Positions 1,248 through 46,804 of a stretch of 64,000 bases of DNA are shown here, one piece after another. The translations under genes and the position numbers were made by a program. The number at the start of each line of letters is the position of its first letter. The stretch's first letter is position 1. The notes under the pieces were generated by a model. It had not been told where the DNA came from. It saw only the letters and a program-made list of their open reading frames with translations, and made no database searches. Source of the stretch: a phage; the sequence record PZ445517.1. One strand, 5' to 3'.

Positions 1248-3944
1248 TCAGCCAAACAGGAAGTCTAACGAAGCTTTTTCTTCATAGTCCATACCCGCCG
1301 ATTCACACATACCCGCAAGCGGTTTAACAAACGATTTTTGGAACAAAGTTGAGTAGTCAATCCAAGACAGTACATCAGAACGAATTTCTTTTGGAAGTTC
1401 CGTACCCGATGGCCAAGCAATACACTTGTCACCAAATGGATTTCCCTCACGTAATGGAAGAACCATTACTTTATTTCCATCCAAAATTGGAGCTACACCT
1501 AAACCGCTAACAGCTCGACGATAAGTTAGCACCCCACGAATGTGGAACGGGCATTTAAATCCTGGCCAACCTTTATCGTCATATTTCGCTATATCGTTCG
1601 CGGTTTTTACTTCAGCAATAACTTTATAGTCAAGTTGACGATATTCTTTCTCAAAGTTCTTGTAGTATTCTTGGACAGACTCTTCACCTTCCTGAAGAAT
1701 ACGACGAATACTTTCTTCGAGAGCTTCTTGTACTGCTTTTGGTGTTGAACTCTGCTGAGTTTCCATACCCATGATTTTTAGATGTGGTTCAGCAAATCGC
1801 TTATCTTCCATATCATAAACGTTCAGAGCATAACGTTTTTTCGCTTTCCAAAATCCACCAACACCCTTTGAACCAAGCGGAGGACAAGAAATAGCTTCAC
1901 GGTCCATATGCATCAGATGCTCGCGGTTATTCATATAATCACATAACTCACGATATGCAACATCAATCATAGGTTCCATCTTTTTCTTACCGAACTGATT
2001 CATGAATTCAACTAAATCATTTTGTTCTTTAAAGCGGTCAAGACCTACTTTTTCAATAACTTTATCTACACAAACATATACAGAATCAGTATCACCCGCT
2101 GCGATGAAATCTTCGCCATTAGTTCCACACACCTTATTCAGGTATTCATTAATTTTACGAGCAATCCACTGAATACCAACTTGACCAAAAATTGTGATAG
2201 CAGTAGCATTTCGCAAATCATAGTAACGGAAATGAATATTACCAAGAGCACCATAAAGACTGTTGATAAGAATTTTACGGTTTAGCTGATTTGTGTTAGC
2301 AAGTGTAGCTGCTTTTTCACATTCTTCGATCAGACTATTAAGAACAGATTCGGTGTAATTCGATAATTCATTTAAGAAATCATCATTGAACTTAACATAT
2401 CGTTCAACTTCTGGTTTAGTTGAGCGAGACCCTGCACCTTTCATAATAATCTTTTTAATAGCTTCGGCATTCATTTCTTCGGCGAACATTTTCTTTTTCC
2501 AATCTTTACGTTGGAAAAATACTTTAGCGATTTCCTTTGGAATGATACCTTCTTGATGCTTATCATACATCCATCCATTCGGAGAACAAGAATATTCATC
2601 ACTTGGCTTAGGAGCTGTTCCTGCGATATATTCATGAATTGGATGAACTTTAAACTGACCACGAATAGTCTCAGGACTAATGTTAACCTGACGAATAATG
2701 CTAGGATACAGAGACGTCAAGTCAAAACTCATAATGTATCGACGAGCAATCGGTTTAGGTTCAAATACAAATGCACCTGGAAAACTTTGTTTAACGTGCG
2801 AACCTTGTTGAGGAATAACCTTATGTTCACCTTTCAACGAGTTAAAAATAATAGCATCCCAAGTTTTAATAGGACTCATTACACCAGAAAAAGGCATTTT
2901 AGCATAATAAGACATACTTAAAACTAGATCGATAAACCCACGAATTTTATCAATTGCTTGAACTGATTCTACGTCAATGATGTTATAACTAATGTATCGT
3001 TGATGATTAGTCTCACGAAGTTTATTAATAGGACCGTCGTATGGCAATTTACCTTTTTTGGTTTCATGTTGAGCAACTGATTCCAAAGAGAATGATGGCA
3101 AATTAGTAAATGCGAATTTCTTGTACAAATCTAAATAATCAAGAATAGATACGCCATCAATAGAATAAATTTCTTTGCTACCGTACATATTTTGAATTAG
3201 TTTAGATTTTACTCGACCGATTGGAGAGAAGCGTTTCATACTGCGTTCGCCCAGAACCATTTTAACACGATTCATGATATACGGAACGTCAAATCCCTCA
3301 ATATTCCAGCCGGTAAAAATAGCAGGTCTTTTCTGTTCCCAGAGATTAATATATTCCATGAGCATATCACGCTCATTATCAAATGGCATATAAATTACTC
3401 GGTCAAGAATTTCTTGAGGAACTTCATCACCACCTTCACAGTCAAGTTTAGCAGCTAACTTTGCATCCCATTTTGATACTGAACCGTACATTGAATTCAA
3501 CAAATCAAAGACGTAAAAACGGTCGTCAATTGAATCATAATGAGTGATAGCATCAATTTCATATTCTGCTTTCATTGGGTCAGGAAATTTATCACCAGTA
3601 ACCTCAATGTCACAGTTAGCTACACGAACAAATTTTCGGTCATAAACAATTTCTGAACCATATGTATCACTGATATAAGCGAGTTTAAAATCGTTCATAC
3701 CGAGAGCTTCGAGACCGATGTCTTCCATTCGTTTCATCCAATCTCGTGCATCTTTCATTGATGGAAATTTTTGAGGAGCGCAATTTTTACCGTAAATGTC
3801 TTTGTATTTTGATTCTTCCTTACAATGTCTAAACATAGTCGGAAGATATTCTACTTCGCGAGTACGTTCCTTTCCATTTTCATCAATATAACGTTCAACA
3901 ATATTATTTCCGACTGTTTCGATAGAGATATAAAATTCTTTCAT
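1248..3944 (-). CDS. 43: DNA polymerase (family B) gp43
   Basis: 898 aa, same as T4 gp43; exonuclease and polymerase motifs (e.g. YGDTDS); AAGGAA SD before ATG at 3944. Confidence 0.97.
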   Translation of the reverse strand: MKEFYISIETVGNNIVERYIDENGKERTREVEYLPTMFRHCKEESKYKDIYGKNCAPQKFPSMKDARDWMKRMEDIGLEALGMNDFKLAYISDTYGSEIVYDRKFVRVANCDIEVTGDKFPDPMKAEYEIDAITHYDSIDDRFYVFDLLNSMYGSVSKWDAKLAAKLDCEGGDEVPQEILDRVIYMPFDNERDMLMEYINLWEQKRPAIFTGWNIEGFDVPYIMNRVKMVLGERSMKRFSPIGRVKSKLIQNMYGSKEIYSIDGVSILDYLDLYKKFAFTNLPSFSLESVAQHETKKGKLPYDGPINKLRETNHQRYISYNIIDVESVQAIDKIRGFIDLVLSMSYYAKMPFSGVMSPIKTWDAIIFNSLKGEHKVIPQQGSHVKQSFPGAFVFEPKPIARRYIMSFDLTSLYPSIIRQVNISPETIRGQFKVHPIHEYIAGTAPKPSDEYSCSPNGWMYDKHQEGIIPKEIAKVFFQRKDWKKKMFAEEMNAEAIKKIIMKGAGSRSTKPEVERYVKFNDDFLNELSNYTESVLNSLIEECEKAATLANTNQLNRKILINSLYGALGNIHFRYYDLRNATAITIFGQVGIQWIARKINEYLNKVCGTNGEDFIAAGDTDSVYVCVDKVIEKVGLDRFKEQNDLVEFMNQFGKKKMEPMIDVAYRELCDYMNNREHLMHMDREAISCPPLGSKGVGGFWKAKKRYALNVYDMEDKRFAEPHLKIMGMETQQSSTPKAVQEALEESIRRILQEGEESVQEYYKNFEKEYRQLDYKVIAEVKTANDIAKYDDKGWPGFKCPFHIRGVLTYRRAVSGLGVAPILDGNKVMVLPLREGNPFGDKCIAWPSGTELPKEIRSDVLSWIDYSTLFQKSFVKPLAGMCESAGMDYEEKASLDFLFG

Positions 3945-5969: not shown

Positions 5970-6656
5970 TTAAAAATCGTGGGTGGAATCAGCTTCAAGA
6001 GCTACTACATAATTCGCATGTTCACCTTCAAATTTAGCAGCACCTTGTTTACCTTTTGCCCAAAGCAGAAGTTTATAATTTCCTGGTTGCATTTTCATAT
6101 TTGCCATATTGATAATGAAATTAAATGTATTTTCACCATCGTAATCACCAAGAGTCAAAGAATATTTAACACGGGTCAGAGCAGAATCTTCTACTTTATT
6201 AAAACCGTTAATTACGATTTTACCTTCTTTTACTGTGATAGCAATTGTATCAATCTGCAGACCACGAGATACACGCAACAGCTGTTGAAGGTCTTCAGCT
6301 TTAATTTCAGTAACAACAGATGCTACCGGGAATGGAATTGGTTTATTAGGAGCAACTACTGTACTCGGATCGGCTGCTGGCCAAAAAATTGTTGAACGGG
6401 CATCAGCAATTTTAATATTTCCATCTTCTGACTGGGAAATTTCTGCATCATCATTAACTAGAGACAGAATACCGAGAAAACCGTTCAAATCGTAAATTGC
6501 TACATCAAAATCAATAACGTCAGAAATATTTGCTTCCGCATAAGTTGTACCATTAACTGCGCGAGTCATAATAAATTGACCGGATTTAAGCATAATACCG
6601 GAGTTAATAGTAGCGAAATTTTTAAGCAGAGCAGTAGTATCTTTAGACAGTTTCAT
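5970..6656 (-). CDS. 45: sliding clamp gp45
   Basis: 228 aa, T4 gp45 length and position. Confidence 0.9.
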   Translation of the reverse strand: MKLSKDTTALLKNFATINSGIMLKSGQFIMTRAVNGTTYAEANISDVIDFDVAIYDLNGFLGILSLVNDDAEISQSEDGNIKIADARSTIFWPAADPSTVVAPNKPIPFPVASVVTEIKAEDLQQLLRVSRGLQIDTIAITVKEGKIVINGFNKVEDSALTRVKYSLTLGDYDGENTFNFIINMANMKMQPGNYKLLLWAKGKQGAAKFEGEHANYVVALEADSTHDF

Positions 6657-6711
6657 GTAATTTCCTTCAATTCAAATGAGATTTAATTTTATAACTAATT
6701 TAATAAAGCAA

Positions 6712-7101
6712 TTAACGATTAAAATCAGCCGCAATTGTTTCCGCAACAATTTGAGCAGCAACAATTAGACGTTCATCTGCATTACCACAATAATCATCTT
6801 CAAGGCGTTCACCACATGAAGTCATAATAAATTTAGCACCGGCGTTTAGGGATTCTGTAGTATGTTTGCGCATTAGTTCAATCCATTTATTACTTACTTC
6901 ACGATCGATAGCTTCATAATACGCATGACGAGCAGGTGCAGATTTAATTTTGTTCTGAATAACTTCCATTGCGTTATCAGAAAGAGATAAAACCCATGCT
7001 CGACGAATTTTATTTTGGTTTTGTGGATTTGATTCAGAACGCACGTGTTTTGGCTGAATATCTTTTACGTCAACAGTATAATTCACAGTAATTTTAGTCA
7101 T
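6712..7101 (-). CDS. rpbA: RNA polymerase-binding protein RpbA
   Basis: 129 aa, T4 RpbA length, downstream of 45. Confidence 0.7.
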
Positions 7102-7110
7102 AATACACCT

Positions 7111-7302
7111 TTAGTCATAATAATCAGTAACAGTCCAAGCTTCATTTCTATTGGACATTATTTTTGTATATTCTGCTTTAAATGCATTCCTAAGCATAGA
7201 TTCAGTAACTATATGCTCTTCATTAGAAAAATTATTTCTCAGAATATATCGTTTTATTTCAGGAAAAGTTAATAAATGCTGTCCAGTTGAATATTCTGCC
7301 AC
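7111..7302 (-). CDS. hypothetical small protein (45.2 position)
   Basis: 63 aa ORF in the T4 45.2 position. Confidence 0.5.
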   Translation of the reverse strand: MAEYSTGQHLLTFPEIKRYILRNNFSNEEHIVTESMLRNAFKAEYTKIMSNRNEAWTVTDYYD

Positions 7303-7312
7303 AGTTCCTCCG

Positions 7313-7320
7313 TATAAATA
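7313..7320 (+). promoter_or_regulatory. T4 late promoter -10 box TATAAATA
   Basis: Exact TATAAATA 34 nt upstream of the HNH ORF ATG at 7354, followed by AAGGAT SD. Confidence 0.5.
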
Positions 7321-7353
7321 TGTTTATCACTCGCTGTATCAAAAGGATATGTT

Positions 7354-8070
7354 ATGAATTATAAACTAATTTATGAAAAGTTAATCTCTAATGCTAAATC
7401 TCGAAAACTTGATTGTTATACTGAATCTCATCACATTATACCACGCTGTTTAAATGGCAGCGATGATGCTTCAAACTTAGTAGATTTAACACCAGAAGAG
7501 CACTATGTAGCTCATCAACTTTTAGTAAAAATTTATCCTTCTGAACCAAAATTAGTCTATGCTGCTAACATGATGACAGTTTCTACGAAATACGCTAAAC
7601 GCAACAATAAAACTTTCGGTTGGATTCGTCGTAAACTCTGGGAAATAGAAAAGAATAAAGAATTCTCCCAGGAGACACGAAAGAAAATGTCTGATGCAGT
7701 AGCTAATAAAGCAAGACTAACTTGTCCTCATTGCGGTAAGTCTGGATTAAGCGGGAATATGAATCGTTGGCATTTTGATAACTGCCCAAATCACCCTAAT
7801 CCTAAAGTTAGACCACCAATGTCTAAAGAACACAGAAATAATATCTCAAACGGGCTTAAAGCAATCGTTCTTGAAGAAACATCCTGCGAATTCTGCGGAA
7901 TGATAGGCAAGAAATGCGTTATCGCAGCGCATAGAAATTTCTGCAAGAAAAATCCAAATGGACGCAAGAAAACTGAAAAGACTGGTACTTGCGTCCATTG
8001 TGGTAAAGTTACCACTTTCGGAAATTTATCAAGATGGCATAATGATAACTGTAAATATAAACTTAGCTAA
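7354..8070 (+). CDS. free-standing HNH homing endonuclease with three C-terminal zinc-finger-like repeats
   Basis: ESHHIIPRCLNGSDDASNLVDLTPEEHYVAHQ HNH motif; three repeats of CxxCGK...NxxRWHxDNC; plus strand, opposite to flanking genes. Confidence 0.75.
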   Translation: MNYKLIYEKLISNAKSRKLDCYTESHHIIPRCLNGSDDASNLVDLTPEEHYVAHQLLVKIYPSEPKLVYAANMMTVSTKYAKRNNKTFGWIRRKLWEIEKNKEFSQETRKKMSDAVANKARLTCPHCGKSGLSGNMNRWHFDNCPNHPNPKVRPPMSKEHRNNISNGLKAIVLEETSCEFCGMIGKKCVIAAHRNFCKKNPNGRKKTEKTGTCVHCGKVTTFGNLSRWHNDNCKYKLS

Positions 8071-9751
8071 TCTTAGCTAAACTAAATCTACCAACTTTTT
8101 CCATCTGAATATGCTGACCATATTCTTGTGGGTCATGGTCTTTATGTGAAATTATGAAGAAGTTGGTATCCTTCAAACCATCTAAAATTTTAGCTACATT
8201 TTTAATACCTTCAGCATCAAATGCACCGTCATACACTTCATCAAGAAATAAACAACTTATTTTAACACCTGAAACTTTTTCAGCAATATCACGCCAAGTA
8301 AATAAAAGAGCAATATCAATTCGCGCTTTTTCACCTTGACTGAATGAAGCATAACTAAAATCTTCACGACCACGGGATTTAATTGTCTCATTAAATTCTT
8401 CATCTAATGTAAACACATAATCCGCTTCCATTATTTTAAGATAATGGTTAATCTGCTTATTAAATAATGGAATGTACTTTTTAATAATAGCACCTTTAAT
8501 ACCAGAATCTTTGAGCATATCAGTCAAAATTCCTCGGTGGTATTTTTCCATTACTAAATTAGTTTTTGTCTTAACAATTTTATCAAGTTCTTCTTGAAGC
8601 AGTGCTATTTCATCAGCATGGTCAATAAACTCAGAAGATGCTTTTTCTATAGCTGCTTTAACTTTTTTAGCTTTATCTACTGTCGTGATTAGAGATTGCT
8701 TTTTATTGCGAATATCATTTGCTAACGACTGCTGGGTTTTAATATTATCTCGGTATTCATCAACAAGAACTTTTAAATTATCACGGTGTGTTGAAAGCTG
8801 TTCAAACGAATGCGTACATTCAGAAACTTTATCTTTAATTTTAGAAACAACTTTATCACCGGAACTTAATTGTGACAAGCAGGTTGGACATAATCCACCT
8901 TCGTGATACATATTAATGACTTTATTATACGAGTCAATTTTTGATTTAATTAAAACTGCTTCTTGACCGATTTTATTAAATGCATCAGTCGGGTCTTCAT
9001 CTAAAACAATATTAACTAATCTTTCATTAGCTTCTTCTATTTCCGATTTTAGCGTTCTAGCTTCTTTTGCCAAATCATCATACATATTTTGAAGACGAGT
9101 AAGGTTGTCACCCGTTAATTTTTTCTGGCGTTCAACGTTATCATTATATATTTTAATTTGTTGGATAATACTATCTTTTTTAACATCAAGCACTTGGTTT
9201 TGTGAATTTAATTCACGTATTAGCGCTTTATTAAGCTTATCCATTTCAGCTAATGTTCCTACCTCAAGCAGGTCTTCCACAAGCTTTCTTCGCGCAGGGG
9301 TCGACAAACCCATGAAAGGGGTATACCCTGCTGTACCAAGAACAACAATCTGCTTGAAACTGGCATATGACATTCCGATAAGCTGTTCAAATTCTGCTTG
9401 GAAATCTTTACTGCTGGCAGATTCATTAAGACGTGTACCGTTAACGGTGATTTCGAAAACGTTTGGTTTTTGTCCTCTTTTGATATAGTACTTTTTCTCA
9501 TCATATTCCATCCACAATTCAACTAAAAGTTCTTTCTTATTTGTGCTGTTTATTAATTGACCTTTCTTTACATCACGAAATGGCTTGCCAAAAAGCCCAA
9601 ATGTGATGGCTTCTAACATAGTAGACTTACCACCGCCATTTCGGCCAGTAATAAGAGTTTTTTGAACCTTATCTAATTGAATGTCAATAGGATTTCCACC
9701 TACTGACATTATATTTTGATACCTAACTCGGTTTAGTTTAAAATTCTTCAC
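8063..9751 (-). CDS. 46: recombination nuclease subunit gp46 (SbcC/Rad50-like ATPase)
   Basis: 562 aa; Walker A GRNGGGKST, coiled-coil middle, zinc hook CPTC, C-terminal ABC signature region. Confidence 0.93.
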   Translation of the reverse strand: MKNFKLNRVRYQNIMSVGGNPIDIQLDKVQKTLITGRNGGGKSTMLEAITFGLFGKPFRDVKKGQLINSTNKKELLVELWMEYDEKKYYIKRGQKPNVFEITVNGTRLNESASSKDFQAEFEQLIGMSYASFKQIVVLGTAGYTPFMGLSTPARRKLVEDLLEVGTLAEMDKLNKALIRELNSQNQVLDVKKDSIIQQIKIYNDNVERQKKLTGDNLTRLQNMYDDLAKEARTLKSEIEEANERLVNIVLDEDPTDAFNKIGQEAVLIKSKIDSYNKVINMYHEGGLCPTCLSQLSSGDKVVSKIKDKVSECTHSFEQLSTHRDNLKVLVDEYRDNIKTQQSLANDIRNKKQSLITTVDKAKKVKAAIEKASSEFIDHADEIALLQEELDKIVKTKTNLVMEKYHRGILTDMLKDSGIKGAIIKKYIPLFNKQINHYLKIMEADYVFTLDEEFNETIKSRGREDFSYASFSQGEKARIDIALLFTWRDIAEKVSGVKISCLFLDEVYDGAFDAEGIKNVAKILDGLKDTNFFIISHKDHDPQEYGQHIQMEKVGRFSLAKIS

Positions 9752-45293: not shown

Positions 45294-45779
45294 TTATTTT
45301 ATGTAATATTTATTTAAAAACTTTCTAGCTTGAGTATGGCTAACATTTATAGCGTTTGCATAATTTTTAATAAAACCTCGTTCATCCATATTAAAATTTT
45401 CTAATATTTTTAATCGTCTAATTATCTCATCTTGGCTTAAGGTACTTGCATTATTTTTAGAAATTTTTTCTAAAGACTGCACTGAGTGTTTTCGACCATT
45501 AAAATTAAAATTTTTAGGTTTTGGAGGAAATCTATCATTTAGTCTCGCATCTTTTGTATTTTGATTATTAGTTGCGCAATATATGTTATTTAATGAGTAT
45601 GGTCCTTTATCACCAAAACGACACATACAGTATTCATGACCCTTTCTTCCACGCTTATCATAATTTCCTGTTGATTTCCACCAATTTAACCACTCATCAA
45701 AAGTTAAATTCCATTCAATGTTTCTACGTATAGCAGAATTCCGCTGAGAAATATATTTTGCATAATCTTCTTTCATCAC
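45294..45779 (-). CDS. hypothetical protein inside tRNA cluster with Cys/His-rich nuclease-like segment and C-terminal HTH (possible mobile-element endonuclease)
   Basis: 161 aa; RRNIEWNLTFDEWLNWW...GHEYCMCRFGDKGPYSLNNIYCATNNQN; C-terminal VSHTQARKFLNKY resembles the HTH tail of the HNH protein at 46172..46804. Confidence 0.5.
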   Translation of the reverse strand: MMKEDYAKYISQRNSAIRRNIEWNLTFDEWLNWWKSTGNYDKRGRKGHEYCMCRFGDKGPYSLNNIYCATNNQNTKDARLNDRFPPKPKNFNFNGRKHSVQSLEKISKNNASTLSQDEIIRRLKILENFNMDERGFIKNYANAINVSHTQARKFLNKYYIK

Positions 45780-46171: not shown

Positions 46172-46804
46172 TTATTTATTACGTGAAAAAGATTGTTCTA
46201 TCAATTCTGGACACTTTCGTTCTATCCATTTTCTAGCTTTTTGTGGGCTTATACCTATTATTTTAGCAGCTTTACTAACCCATCCAAATTTAGAATAATC
46301 GATTTTAACTAATTCTTCGTAAATTTCATCAGTTAAAATCTTTTCATTAATATTTACCAGTAAATGATATAATTTATTATCATTAGCAATTTTAATGAAT
46401 CTTTTATAGTTTCCGCCTTTACTTAAACCTAATGAAGTAATTGCAGATGATATAGTAGCCGAATTTAATAATGCGTTTAAAATTTCTTCATCACTAACAT
46501 TATAACGCTTTTTATTATTTTTAATATTTTTACCAGCAAAAGTATCAGTTTGCGAATGGCAATTTGGACATAATAATCTTAAATTTGATTTAAGATGATT
46601 TTTATTATTTCCATCAATATGGTCTAATTGCAGAACAATATGCTTATTTTGCCATTTTGAAATTTTACAAATTGCACACTCATATGGAAAAATATTTTCT
46701 TTTATTATTTTGTCTTTCAGCTTTCCTGTACTAAAATTTGGATGTTTTCCTTCAAAAATTTCAGCTAATTTAGTATCCATAATATAATTCCCAATTATTA
46801 ACAA
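46172..46804 (-). CDS. HNH endonuclease with C-terminal DNA-binding (HTH) domain, directly upstream of tRNA cluster
   Basis: LDHIDGNNKNHLKSNLRLLCPNCH canonical HNH motif preceded by CxxC; 210 aa. Confidence 0.75.
   Translation of the reverse strand: MLIIGNYIMDTKLAEIFEGKHPNFSTGKLKDKIIKENIFPYECAICKISKWQNKHIVLQLDHIDGNNKNHLKSNLRLLCPNCHSQTDTFAGKNIKNNKKRYNVSDEEILNALLNSATISSAITSLGLSKGGNYKRFIKIANDNKLYHLLVNINEKILTDEIYEELVKIDYSKFGWVSKAAKIIGISPQKARKWIERKCPELIEQSFSRNK

Follow-up and report, generated by a model that had tools for sequence, protein, structure and literature searches.

The endonuclease gene and its surroundings

The DNA analysed here, called the window, is a stretch of 64,000 nucleotides from a phage (sequence record PZ445517.1). 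Between its genes 45.2 and 46 lies an open reading frame of the homing endonuclease type, which encodes 238 amino acids on the plus strand and runs from an ATG at 7354 to a stop codon at 8068-8070 (Table 1). The 2-kb stretch of the window that was queried matches Escherichia phage T4_ev240 (LR597657.1, Tequatrovirus) with 100% identity. The deposited annotation of that identical record lists 108 features in positions 1-50000, all on the minus strand save the endonuclease CDS, in agreement with the initial annotation, which had called this the only plus-strand gene in 50 kb. To the left are the minus-strand genes 45.2, rpbA, 45, 44, 62, regA and 43, and to the right 46, 46.1, 46.2 and 47, also on the minus strand. 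Gene 45.2 occupies 7111..7302, hence positions 7303-7353 are the noncoding leader of the endonuclease gene. The initial annotation had given the gene a span of 7303-8070, of which the end is correct; the start is not, 7303 being the base that adjoins the 45.2 start codon. The stop codons of the endonuclease gene and gene 46 (8063-8065) meet tail to tail, with an 8-nt overlap.

The statement that T4 has no gene at this junction proved right, the gap between 45.2 and 46 being a 55-bp spacer in T4 and likewise in T2. A search of positions 6500-9000 against Rfam revealed no group I or group II intron or other known RNA family, the lone match being to RAGATH-8 and far below threshold. The open reading frame is a separate CDS between two genes, outside any intron or intein.

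Table 1. Coordinates of the features at the endonuclease locus (window positions)
Feature	Position	Strand	Remarks
Whole carrier-specific cassette	7297..8258	.	altered 45.2 start, leader, endonuclease gene, divergent gene 46 3' tail
Rewritten 45.2 translation start	7297..7312	-	GTG and an extra Ala codon, with a GGAGG Shine-Dalgarno, versus ATG in T4/T2
T4 late-promoter consensus TATAAATA (predicted promoter)	7313..7320	+	exact match, 33 nt upstream of ATG
Conserved leader element TCGCTGTATCAAA	7331..7343	+	TYGCTGTATCAAA kept in three genera; possible operator or RNA element
Shine-Dalgarno AAGGA	7343..7347	+	6 nt before ATG; AAGGA also in MX01 and 348Ecol098PP
Homing endonuclease CDS	7354..8070	+	238 aa, RB32ORF054w type
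HNH (beta-beta-alpha-metal) nuclease domain	7354..7653	+	residues 1-100; H26, H27, N41, H50
NUMOD3-like helix SQETRKKMSDAVANK	7660..7704	+	residues 103-117; weak Pfam NUMOD3 match (E 0.13), family alignment, helix in model
Zinc finger 1, CX2CX12HX3C	7723..7785	+	residues 124-144 (CPHCGK..RWHFDNC); hairpin and helix in model
Zinc finger 2, CX2CX11HX3C, diverged	7885..7944	+	residues 178-197 (CEFCGM..AHRNFC); hairpin and helix in model
Zinc finger 3, CX2CX12HX3C	7990..8052	+	residues 213-233 (CVHCGK..RWHNDNC); family-wide finger
Divergent gene 46 3' end	8063..8258	-	last ~65 codons, beginning shortly before Walker B and reaching the stop

Architecture of the protein

The 238 amino acids form a modular protein whose N-terminus holds an HNH core, followed by a NUMOD3-like helix and then by three zinc fingers of the Cys2-His-Cys kind. 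The HNH motif that had been read from the translation, E24-S-H26-H27-I-I-P30-R-C followed by N41 and then E48-E-H50-Y-V-A-H54, is present and its key residues are invariant in the family alignment. Across the alignment of 40 homologs the invariant residues are E24, H26, H27, P30, G35, N41, L45, H50, and H54, and the finger 3 ligands C213, C216, H229, and C233 are likewise invariant in the 40-sequence alignment. Three tandem CxxCGK...RWHxDNC repeats had been proposed for the C-terminal part; fingers 1 and 3 have this form and the middle one is a diverged CX2CX11HX3C unit. The zinc fingers are a predicted DNA-binding module.

A search of a large protein database returned 2300 homologs, and the protein matches PHROG 655, 'homing endonuclease', with an E value of 7.5e-69. 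The Pfam HNH profile (PF01844) gives a sub-threshold match, with an E value of 0.007 and 16.9 bits against a curated cut-off of 21.4. When the family profile was compared with the PDB, the HNH motif of EcoKMcrA was matched (E 2.3e-4), as were Cas8-HNH fusions, with residue-for-residue alignment. Only an IscB HNH segment was returned from NCBIfam, at 3.7e-5 and far under the cut-off. An AlphaFold (AF2) model based on the 40-sequence alignment has a pLDDT of 91.4; the fold that it predicts for the HNH motif is a beta-beta-alpha unit, and that for each of the fingers a beta-hairpin followed by a helix. Whole-chain fold searches gave no significant match, returning zinc-finger arrays and small HNH cores only, as would be expected for a protein built like beads on a string.

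The ratio of non-synonymous to synonymous change (dN/dS) is between 0.03 and 0.22 overall, indicating purifying selection. Comparison of the window with RB51 identified 14 synonymous and 5 non-synonymous changes (dN/dS 0.08), differences among the Tequatrovirus copies being mostly at synonymous sites, and between genera the ratio is 0.12 to 0.22. It is therefore extremely improbable that the reading frame is open by chance, or that it belongs to a decayed pseudogene without a product. Two features would fit such a frame: it runs against the local direction of transcription, and a scan for a sigma-70-type promoter found none. Against this, the frame is intact in about 60 genomes, its dN/dS is far below 1, the catalytic and zinc-ligand residues are invariant, and the predicted structure is a confident one. 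The PHROG 655 match, the 2300 homologs and the low dN/dS together argue that this is not a chance ORF.

Comparison with known endonucleases

T-even phages are rich in free-standing homing endonuclease genes. By its sequence, the protein belongs with the HNH endonucleases of the T-even Mob / I-TevIII type. Its alignment with T4 MobE, an HNH enzyme encoded between nrdA and nrdB, covers the full length of 238 aa at 34% identity (E 7e-34). Both have an N-terminal HNH core and a C-terminal CX2CX12HX3C finger, and both are encoded by free-standing genes that abut a conserved essential gene, which is nrdB in the case of mobE and gene 46 here. MobE has NUMOD3-like repeats and one finger, whereas the protein described here has one NUMOD3-like helix and three fingers; two of the middle MobE repeats are replaced by two extra fingers, and finger 3 aligns with the single finger of MobE. 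The genes also differ in their arrangement, mobE being promoterless and co-transcribed with nrdA, whereas the gene next to 46 is on the opposite strand to its neighbours and has a predicted late-type promoter of its own. MobE nicks nrdB at nt 122-126, some 125 nt inside the gene, beside a conserved motif that is polymorphic in carriers (Wilson & Edgell 2009, PMC2790892), and its nicking and homing have been shown in vivo (PMC2790892).

The second close relative is I-TevIII, from the nrdB intron of RB3. Its residues H26, H27, N39, and H48 correspond to H26, H27, N41, and H50, and its two fingers are colinear with fingers 2 and 3 and the KKNPN linker between them (36% identity over 67 aa, E 8e-9). 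Over 28 aa, zinc finger 1 and I-TevIII finger 2 share 50% identity. The CX2CX12-13HX3C fingers of I-TevIII bind zinc and are required for DNA binding, and the catalytic residues are H26, H27, N39, and H48 (Robbins et al. 2007, PMC1865063). I-TevIII lies in a group I intron and has two fingers; at the gene 46 locus no intron RNA was detected and there are three fingers. I-TevIII works as a dimer, and the double-strand break that it makes has 2-nt 3' overhangs.

I-HmuI, of the SPO1 group, is an HNH nicking homing endonuclease of solved structure that has NUMOD and helix-turn-helix modules and no zinc fingers. Like MobA-D, it shares with this protein the plan of an HNH head extended by small DNA-binding modules, which are here zinc fingers. 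I-HmuI was not among the matches of the PDB sequence and fold searches, and the resemblance to MobA-D is taken from the literature and from the 'similar to mobB' note attached to the RB32 gene. The segD gene of T4 is also a free-standing endonuclease gene that is antisense to the essential genes flanking it (PMC2988022). It differs in belonging to the GIY-YIG family and in having no identifiable promoter of its own, where the HNH gene of the window has a conserved late-promoter consensus; antisense orientation to the neighbours is common to both.

Expression and the leader sequence

The late-type promoter that the initial annotation had assigned to the gene at 7313-7320 is indeed represented there by TATAAATA. 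This is a predicted promoter, supported by its position and its conservation and not by motif count, since TATAAATA occurs 11 times in the window with 10.9 expected, showing no enrichment. The cassettes of MX01 and 348Ecol098PP, of the genera Dhakavirus and Mosigvirus, have the same octamer at the same relative position, and phT4A has TTAAATA. Conservation extends to the leader, with tttatc..TYGCTGTATCAAA..AAGGA present in both MX01 and 348Ecol098PP, although the proteins they encode are just 57-64% identical to that of the window. Such conservation of promoter and leader across three genera speaks for a late promoter and a Shine-Dalgarno that are functional. Transcription of the gene would start at its own TATAAATA promoter, late in infection, and lead away from the neighbouring early genes. 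I-TevIII is expressed from a late promoter and intron endonucleases use middle or late promoters (PMC2988022); in bearing a predicted promoter, the gene resembles these intron endonucleases and is unlike the promoterless mobE.

In the simple scan that found no sigma-70 promoter for the endonuclease gene, no intrinsic terminator was found either. When the leader and the convergent junction were folded as RNA, the z-scores were an unconvincing -1.4 to -2.5. A small hairpin, composed of two palindromic TTAGCTAA octamers, spans both stop codons but is not statistically convincing.

Of 14 positions in TCGCTGAATCAAA, the D-loop coding sequence (F-D-S-A-T, on the other strand) of the T2-type gene 46, 13 agree with the conserved leader element. 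A pattern of this kind, allowing at most 1 mismatch, is expected 0.68 times per 128 kb, or approximately 0.04 times per 7-kb locus. The match falls within the range for shuffled sequences, the best local score being 12 against a mean of 10.5 (sd 1.3), and it is weaker when the leaders of MX01 (10 of 13) and 348Ecol098PP (8 of 11) are compared with their gene-free relatives. The leader element may be an operator that mimics the homing site, as the operator of I-TevI does, an idea that is presented here as a lead and not as a finding.

Distribution of the gene

Of 599 phage records matching the region, 60 contain the insert, and a tblastn search identified the same 60 records with at least 95% protein identity. 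Carriers include RB32, RB33, RB51, and many recent isolates. The Tequatrovirus copies are at least 98% identical to each other and are all in the same T2-type flanks. Records that lack the gene are of two types, T4-type and T2-type, as judged from the junction and the gene 46 3' end, and the gene-free junction is identical in the 7 genomes compared. Both states are present within one ICTV species, Tequatrovirus gee4498, in which G4498 has the gene and WilhelmHis does not. A scan of IMG/VR with the gp46 C-terminus produced 80 dereplicated gp46 loci, which were used only as gene-free comparison alleles; the endonuclease gene is present in none of the 80, which makes it a sporadic gene that is not going to fixation.

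The insertion had been called lineage-specific, a description that does not survive the comparison, as about 60 Tequatrovirus genomes carry the gene and homologs are present at the same site in other T4-like genera. These include homologs in Dhakavirus MX01 (64% identity), Mosigvirus 348Ecol098PP (57%), and Slopekvirus phT4A (42%), with others in three further genomes or metagenomic contigs (59%, 48%, and 47%). In all eight lineages examined, counting the window, the three-finger homologs are convergent with gene 46 at its 3' end, abutting or overlapping it; the lineages named for this count are the window, MX01, 348Ecol098PP, phT4A, P0015, P0020, and P0022. In phT4A, gene 46 is retained as a neighbour, rpbA is not, and the other neighbours differ, which leaves gene 46 as the constant partner of the endonuclease gene.

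The cassette and the divergent tail of gene 46

Junctions were compared between five Tequatrovirus carriers and seven non-carriers using fixed anchor sequences. A global MAFFT alignment of the junction against T4 was misleading, spreading the short spacer over the insert, and the anchored comparison of the flanks was used in its place. On the left, rpbA and 45.2 show no gene-linked difference up to position 7296. At the 45.2 junction, T4 and T2 have ...GAATATTCCATGTTTTTCCTCC and the carriers have ...GAATATTCTGCCACAGTTCCTCC, so that the translation start of 45.2 is rewritten.

On the right, the 3' end of gene 46 is altered over a far longer stretch. The carrier gp46 has the C-terminus ..GRFSLAKIS in place of ..GRFTVMV, and the gene 46 tail of carriers is 74% identical to the T2-type allele (about 26% divergence, as within 8100-8260) and 83% identical to the T4-type allele (17%). 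Beyond approximately 8258-8260 the window is essentially the T2-type allele, with 0 or 1 mismatch per 50 bp. The same pattern is found in the other genera. MX01 differs from its gene-free relative L012 by 65 mismatches in the last 230 bp of gene 46 and then by about 1 per 50 bp, and 348Ecol098PP differs from the gene-free L017 by 54 mismatches in about 200 bp, with almost none thereafter. Thus in the three genera with a close gene-free relative, the gene is accompanied by a patch of approximately 200 bp that is 20-30% divergent. The placement of the insertion between rpbA/45.2 and gene 46 was accurate as to location, but a tie to rpbA/45.2 is not seen; the insertion is bound to the 3' end of gene 46 by the overlapping stop codons and by bringing the last ~65 codons in a form of its own.

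In each of the three pairs, the divergent stretch sets in no more than some 40 nt upstream of the Walker B codons (..LDE..) and continues as far as the stop codon. The sequence ATTCTTGATGA, which encodes I-L-D-E, is present in the nearest non-carriers T2, T4, L012, and L017 and is absent from all five carrier lineages in which the Walker B region was read. It has been replaced differently in each of these, by TTTCTT.., GTGTTG.., ATTATGGAC.., TTCTTG.., and ATCCTG... At the amino acid level, the Walker B residues CLFLDEVYD were considered as a diagnostic marker of immunity and were rejected, being present also in the gene-free L010 and L011. Because the Tequatrovirus copies are all in the same T2-type flanks, the patch boundary that they share could be one historical recombination junction rather than the mark of a cut site.

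A probable homing endonuclease associated with gene 46

Homology to MobE and I-TevIII, the presence or absence of the gene in related genomes, and the divergent patch flanking it all support the initial reading of an opposite-strand, free-standing HNH homing endonuclease gene with a zinc-finger DNA-binding tail between 45.2 and 46. Sporadic presence at one fixed site, together with a co-inherited divergent flank in three genera, is the signature of mobility. The evidence makes it probable that this free-standing gene encodes a homing endonuclease of the T-even Mob / I-TevIII type, specific for the 3' end of gene 46. We infer that the enzyme is active, that it makes a nick or a double-strand break at a cut site of its own, and that the altered tail of gene 46 confers immunity.

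The gene 46 product, gp46, is a Rad50/SbcC-like recombination ATPase. Homing would begin when a carrier co-infects with a gene-free relative and the zinc fingers bind a conserved sequence in gene 46 of the relative. The likeliest site would be the segment encoding Walker B and the D-loop (..TLILDEVFD..), some 170-200 bp from the insertion point, and there the HNH domain would nick or cut the recipient DNA. The phage recombination machinery would repair the damage with the carrier genome as template, so that both the endonuclease gene and the gene 46 tail are copied in, and the substitutions in that tail would protect the carrier from its own enzyme. Intronless homing of this kind has been described for the seg and mob genes of T4 (PMC2988022). 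By analogy, the geometry would be that of MobE, with a cut inside the adjoining gene at a motif that is polymorphic in carriers.

It is also conceivable that the enzyme is an active homing endonuclease with its target outside the Walker B and D-loop segment, be it the spacer that separates 45.2 from 46, the very last part of gene 46 at its 3' end, 45.2 itself, or a more distant sequence. The cut of a free-standing phage endonuclease can lie hundreds to thousands of bp from the gene that encodes it (PMC2988022), the insertion also rewrites the start of 45.2 and the last codons of gp46, and the patch boundary may be a historical one. Such a target is nonetheless quite unlikely, given that 45.2 and rpbA on the left have no gene-linked differences and that, in three independent comparisons at genus level, the patch stops no more than about 40 nt from the Walker B codons.

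The strong purifying selection, and the conservation of the leader beyond its promoter and Shine-Dalgarno, would suit a different history, in which the gene descends from a homing endonuclease, is domesticated or no longer mobile, and has been kept for the exclusion of competitors, for the degradation of foreign DNA, or for the regulation of its neighbours. Carriage by about 10% of relatives, always within the same flanks, would fit vertical inheritance with occasional loss. I-TevI doubles as an autorepressor (PMC2988022), and nucleases of benefit to the host have been documented to arise from homing endonucleases, the two conditions being indistinguishable by bioinformatics alone (PMC10448857). 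However, three genera show tight linkage between the gene and the gene 46 patch, and the position next to one essential gene is strictly kept while the proteins have diverged to 42-64% identity. A linked patch and a fixed position are what homing predicts, and neither is needed by a defence or regulatory protein acting in trans; competitor exclusion, moreover, is the same biochemical act as homing. Domestication is thus an unlikely account of the gene. Regulation, were it the retained function, might take the form of binding to its own leader or of antisense transcription into gene 46.

Within the preferred reading of a homing endonuclease specific for the gene 46 3' end, a more detailed proposal can be made, although it is a doubtful one. 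The clade with three fingers may constitute a homing lineage dedicated to gene 46, whose site is the Walker B/D-loop segment, with the TYGCTGTATCAAA of the leader as an operator that mimics the homing site and allows autorepression in the style of I-TevI. The site is suggested by the patch boundaries in three genera, and the operator by one match, which is not significant by itself. Neither a dedicated gene 46 homing lineage nor an operator mimicking its homing site was described in the papers searched. If the proposal were true, a selfish nuclease would be cutting the gene for the gp46/47 machinery, which processes the breaks for its own homing.

Prior knowledge and significance

The endonuclease gene is already known by annotation and has been labelled in GenBank since the RB32 deposit, where RB32ORF054w is a 'putative site-specific intron-like DNA endonuclease, similar to mobB'; the RefSeq name is 'homing endonuclease'. 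A 2010 review counted two 'mob-like HNH' genes for RB32 (PMC2993671). In the literature searched, no paper was found that names or characterises the RB32ORF054w-type gene, nor were any cleavage, nicking, or homing data found for its protein. With the label of homing endonuclease already in the public records, the analysis adds little that is new overall. What it does describe is a Mob-type enzyme with an unusual three-finger predicted DNA-binding array and a conserved, predicted late promoter of its own, whose candidate target has been narrowed computationally to about 60 bp of gene 46, from Walker B to the D-loop.

The divergent tail that is linked to the gene lies in an essential recombination gene and provides a clean example of local mosaicism made by an element in core genes. 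Those who use gene 46 as a phylogenetic marker should heed this endonuclease-linked mosaic tail.

Gene 46/45.2 junction

In the carriers, that is, the genomes with the endonuclease gene, gene 45.2 begins with GTG and an additional Ala codon in place of ATG (window 7297-7302). The Dhakavirus-like locus L012 lacks the endonuclease, and there the 45.2 start and the gene 46 stop overlap as ATGA (approximately 3000-3010). Genes 46 and 45.2, otherwise translationally adjacent, have therefore been uncoupled by insertion of the endonuclease gene.

Two strongly different alleles of the gene 46 tail, T4-type and T2-type, are also present among endonuclease-free genomes (window 8100-8340 against the T4 and T2 loci, L002 and L087). 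The tail of the carriers is nearer to the T4-type (83%, against 74% for the T2-type). The T4-type tail could be the footprint of past occupation by the endonuclease, followed by its loss.

The overlapping stop codons of the endonuclease gene and gene 46 are spanned by a pair of TTAGCTAA palindromes, each 8 nt long and separated by 2 nt, from which a 7 bp hairpin is possible. At the equivalent position MX01 has another 7 bp hairpin, AAGCCTC/GAGGCTT; neither of the two is present at the stop-codon junction of RB51. Folding z-scores for these hairpins are only -1.6 to -2.5.

Features of the window associated with the junction and with other endonuclease or tRNA loci
Feature	Position	Strand	Context or basis
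Hairpin at overlapping stop codons	8062-8080; 3706-3724 in locus L004		sequence and folding z-scores
Second HNH-type endonuclease gene, 279 aa	17390-18229	minus	between nrdG and nrdD; annotated 'putative homing endonuclease'
'Hypothetical protein' CDS	45294-45776	minus	within or beside tRNA gene cluster (annotation)
'Hypothetical protein' CDS	46172-46780	minus	within or beside tRNA gene cluster (annotation)

Second endonuclease gene

The HNH head of the nrdG-nrdD endonuclease has 34% identity to the product of 7354..8070 (E 2e-4), and its C-terminus has a weak I-HmuI NUMOD-like match (E 2.4e-4). Residues 1-13 (MNYDRFYPCDFVN) are nearly a copy of the start of NrdG (MNYDRIYPCCFVN), which is encoded downstream; this suggests, from the sequences compared, that insertion of this gene left behind a duplicated gene start.

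Other sequence features

Within the endonuclease ORF at the gene 46 junction, TGCTTTA-N13-TATTAT was read directly from the sequence on the minus strand (window 7838-7863). It resembles a MotA-dependent middle promoter and could be a candidate driver of 45.2, rpbA, and 45. A match to the Rfam family RAGATH-8 in the same ORF (7959-7997) was taken as noise: it reached 21.5 bits, far short of the gathering score, 86.7.

phT4A also has one match to the leader-element pattern TYGCTGWATCAAA close to the 5' end of gene 46 (L005 5314-5326), not at the D-loop, and this occurrence is probably due to chance. The two hypothetical CDSs at the tRNA cluster are at the position occupied in T4 by the endonuclease gene segB.
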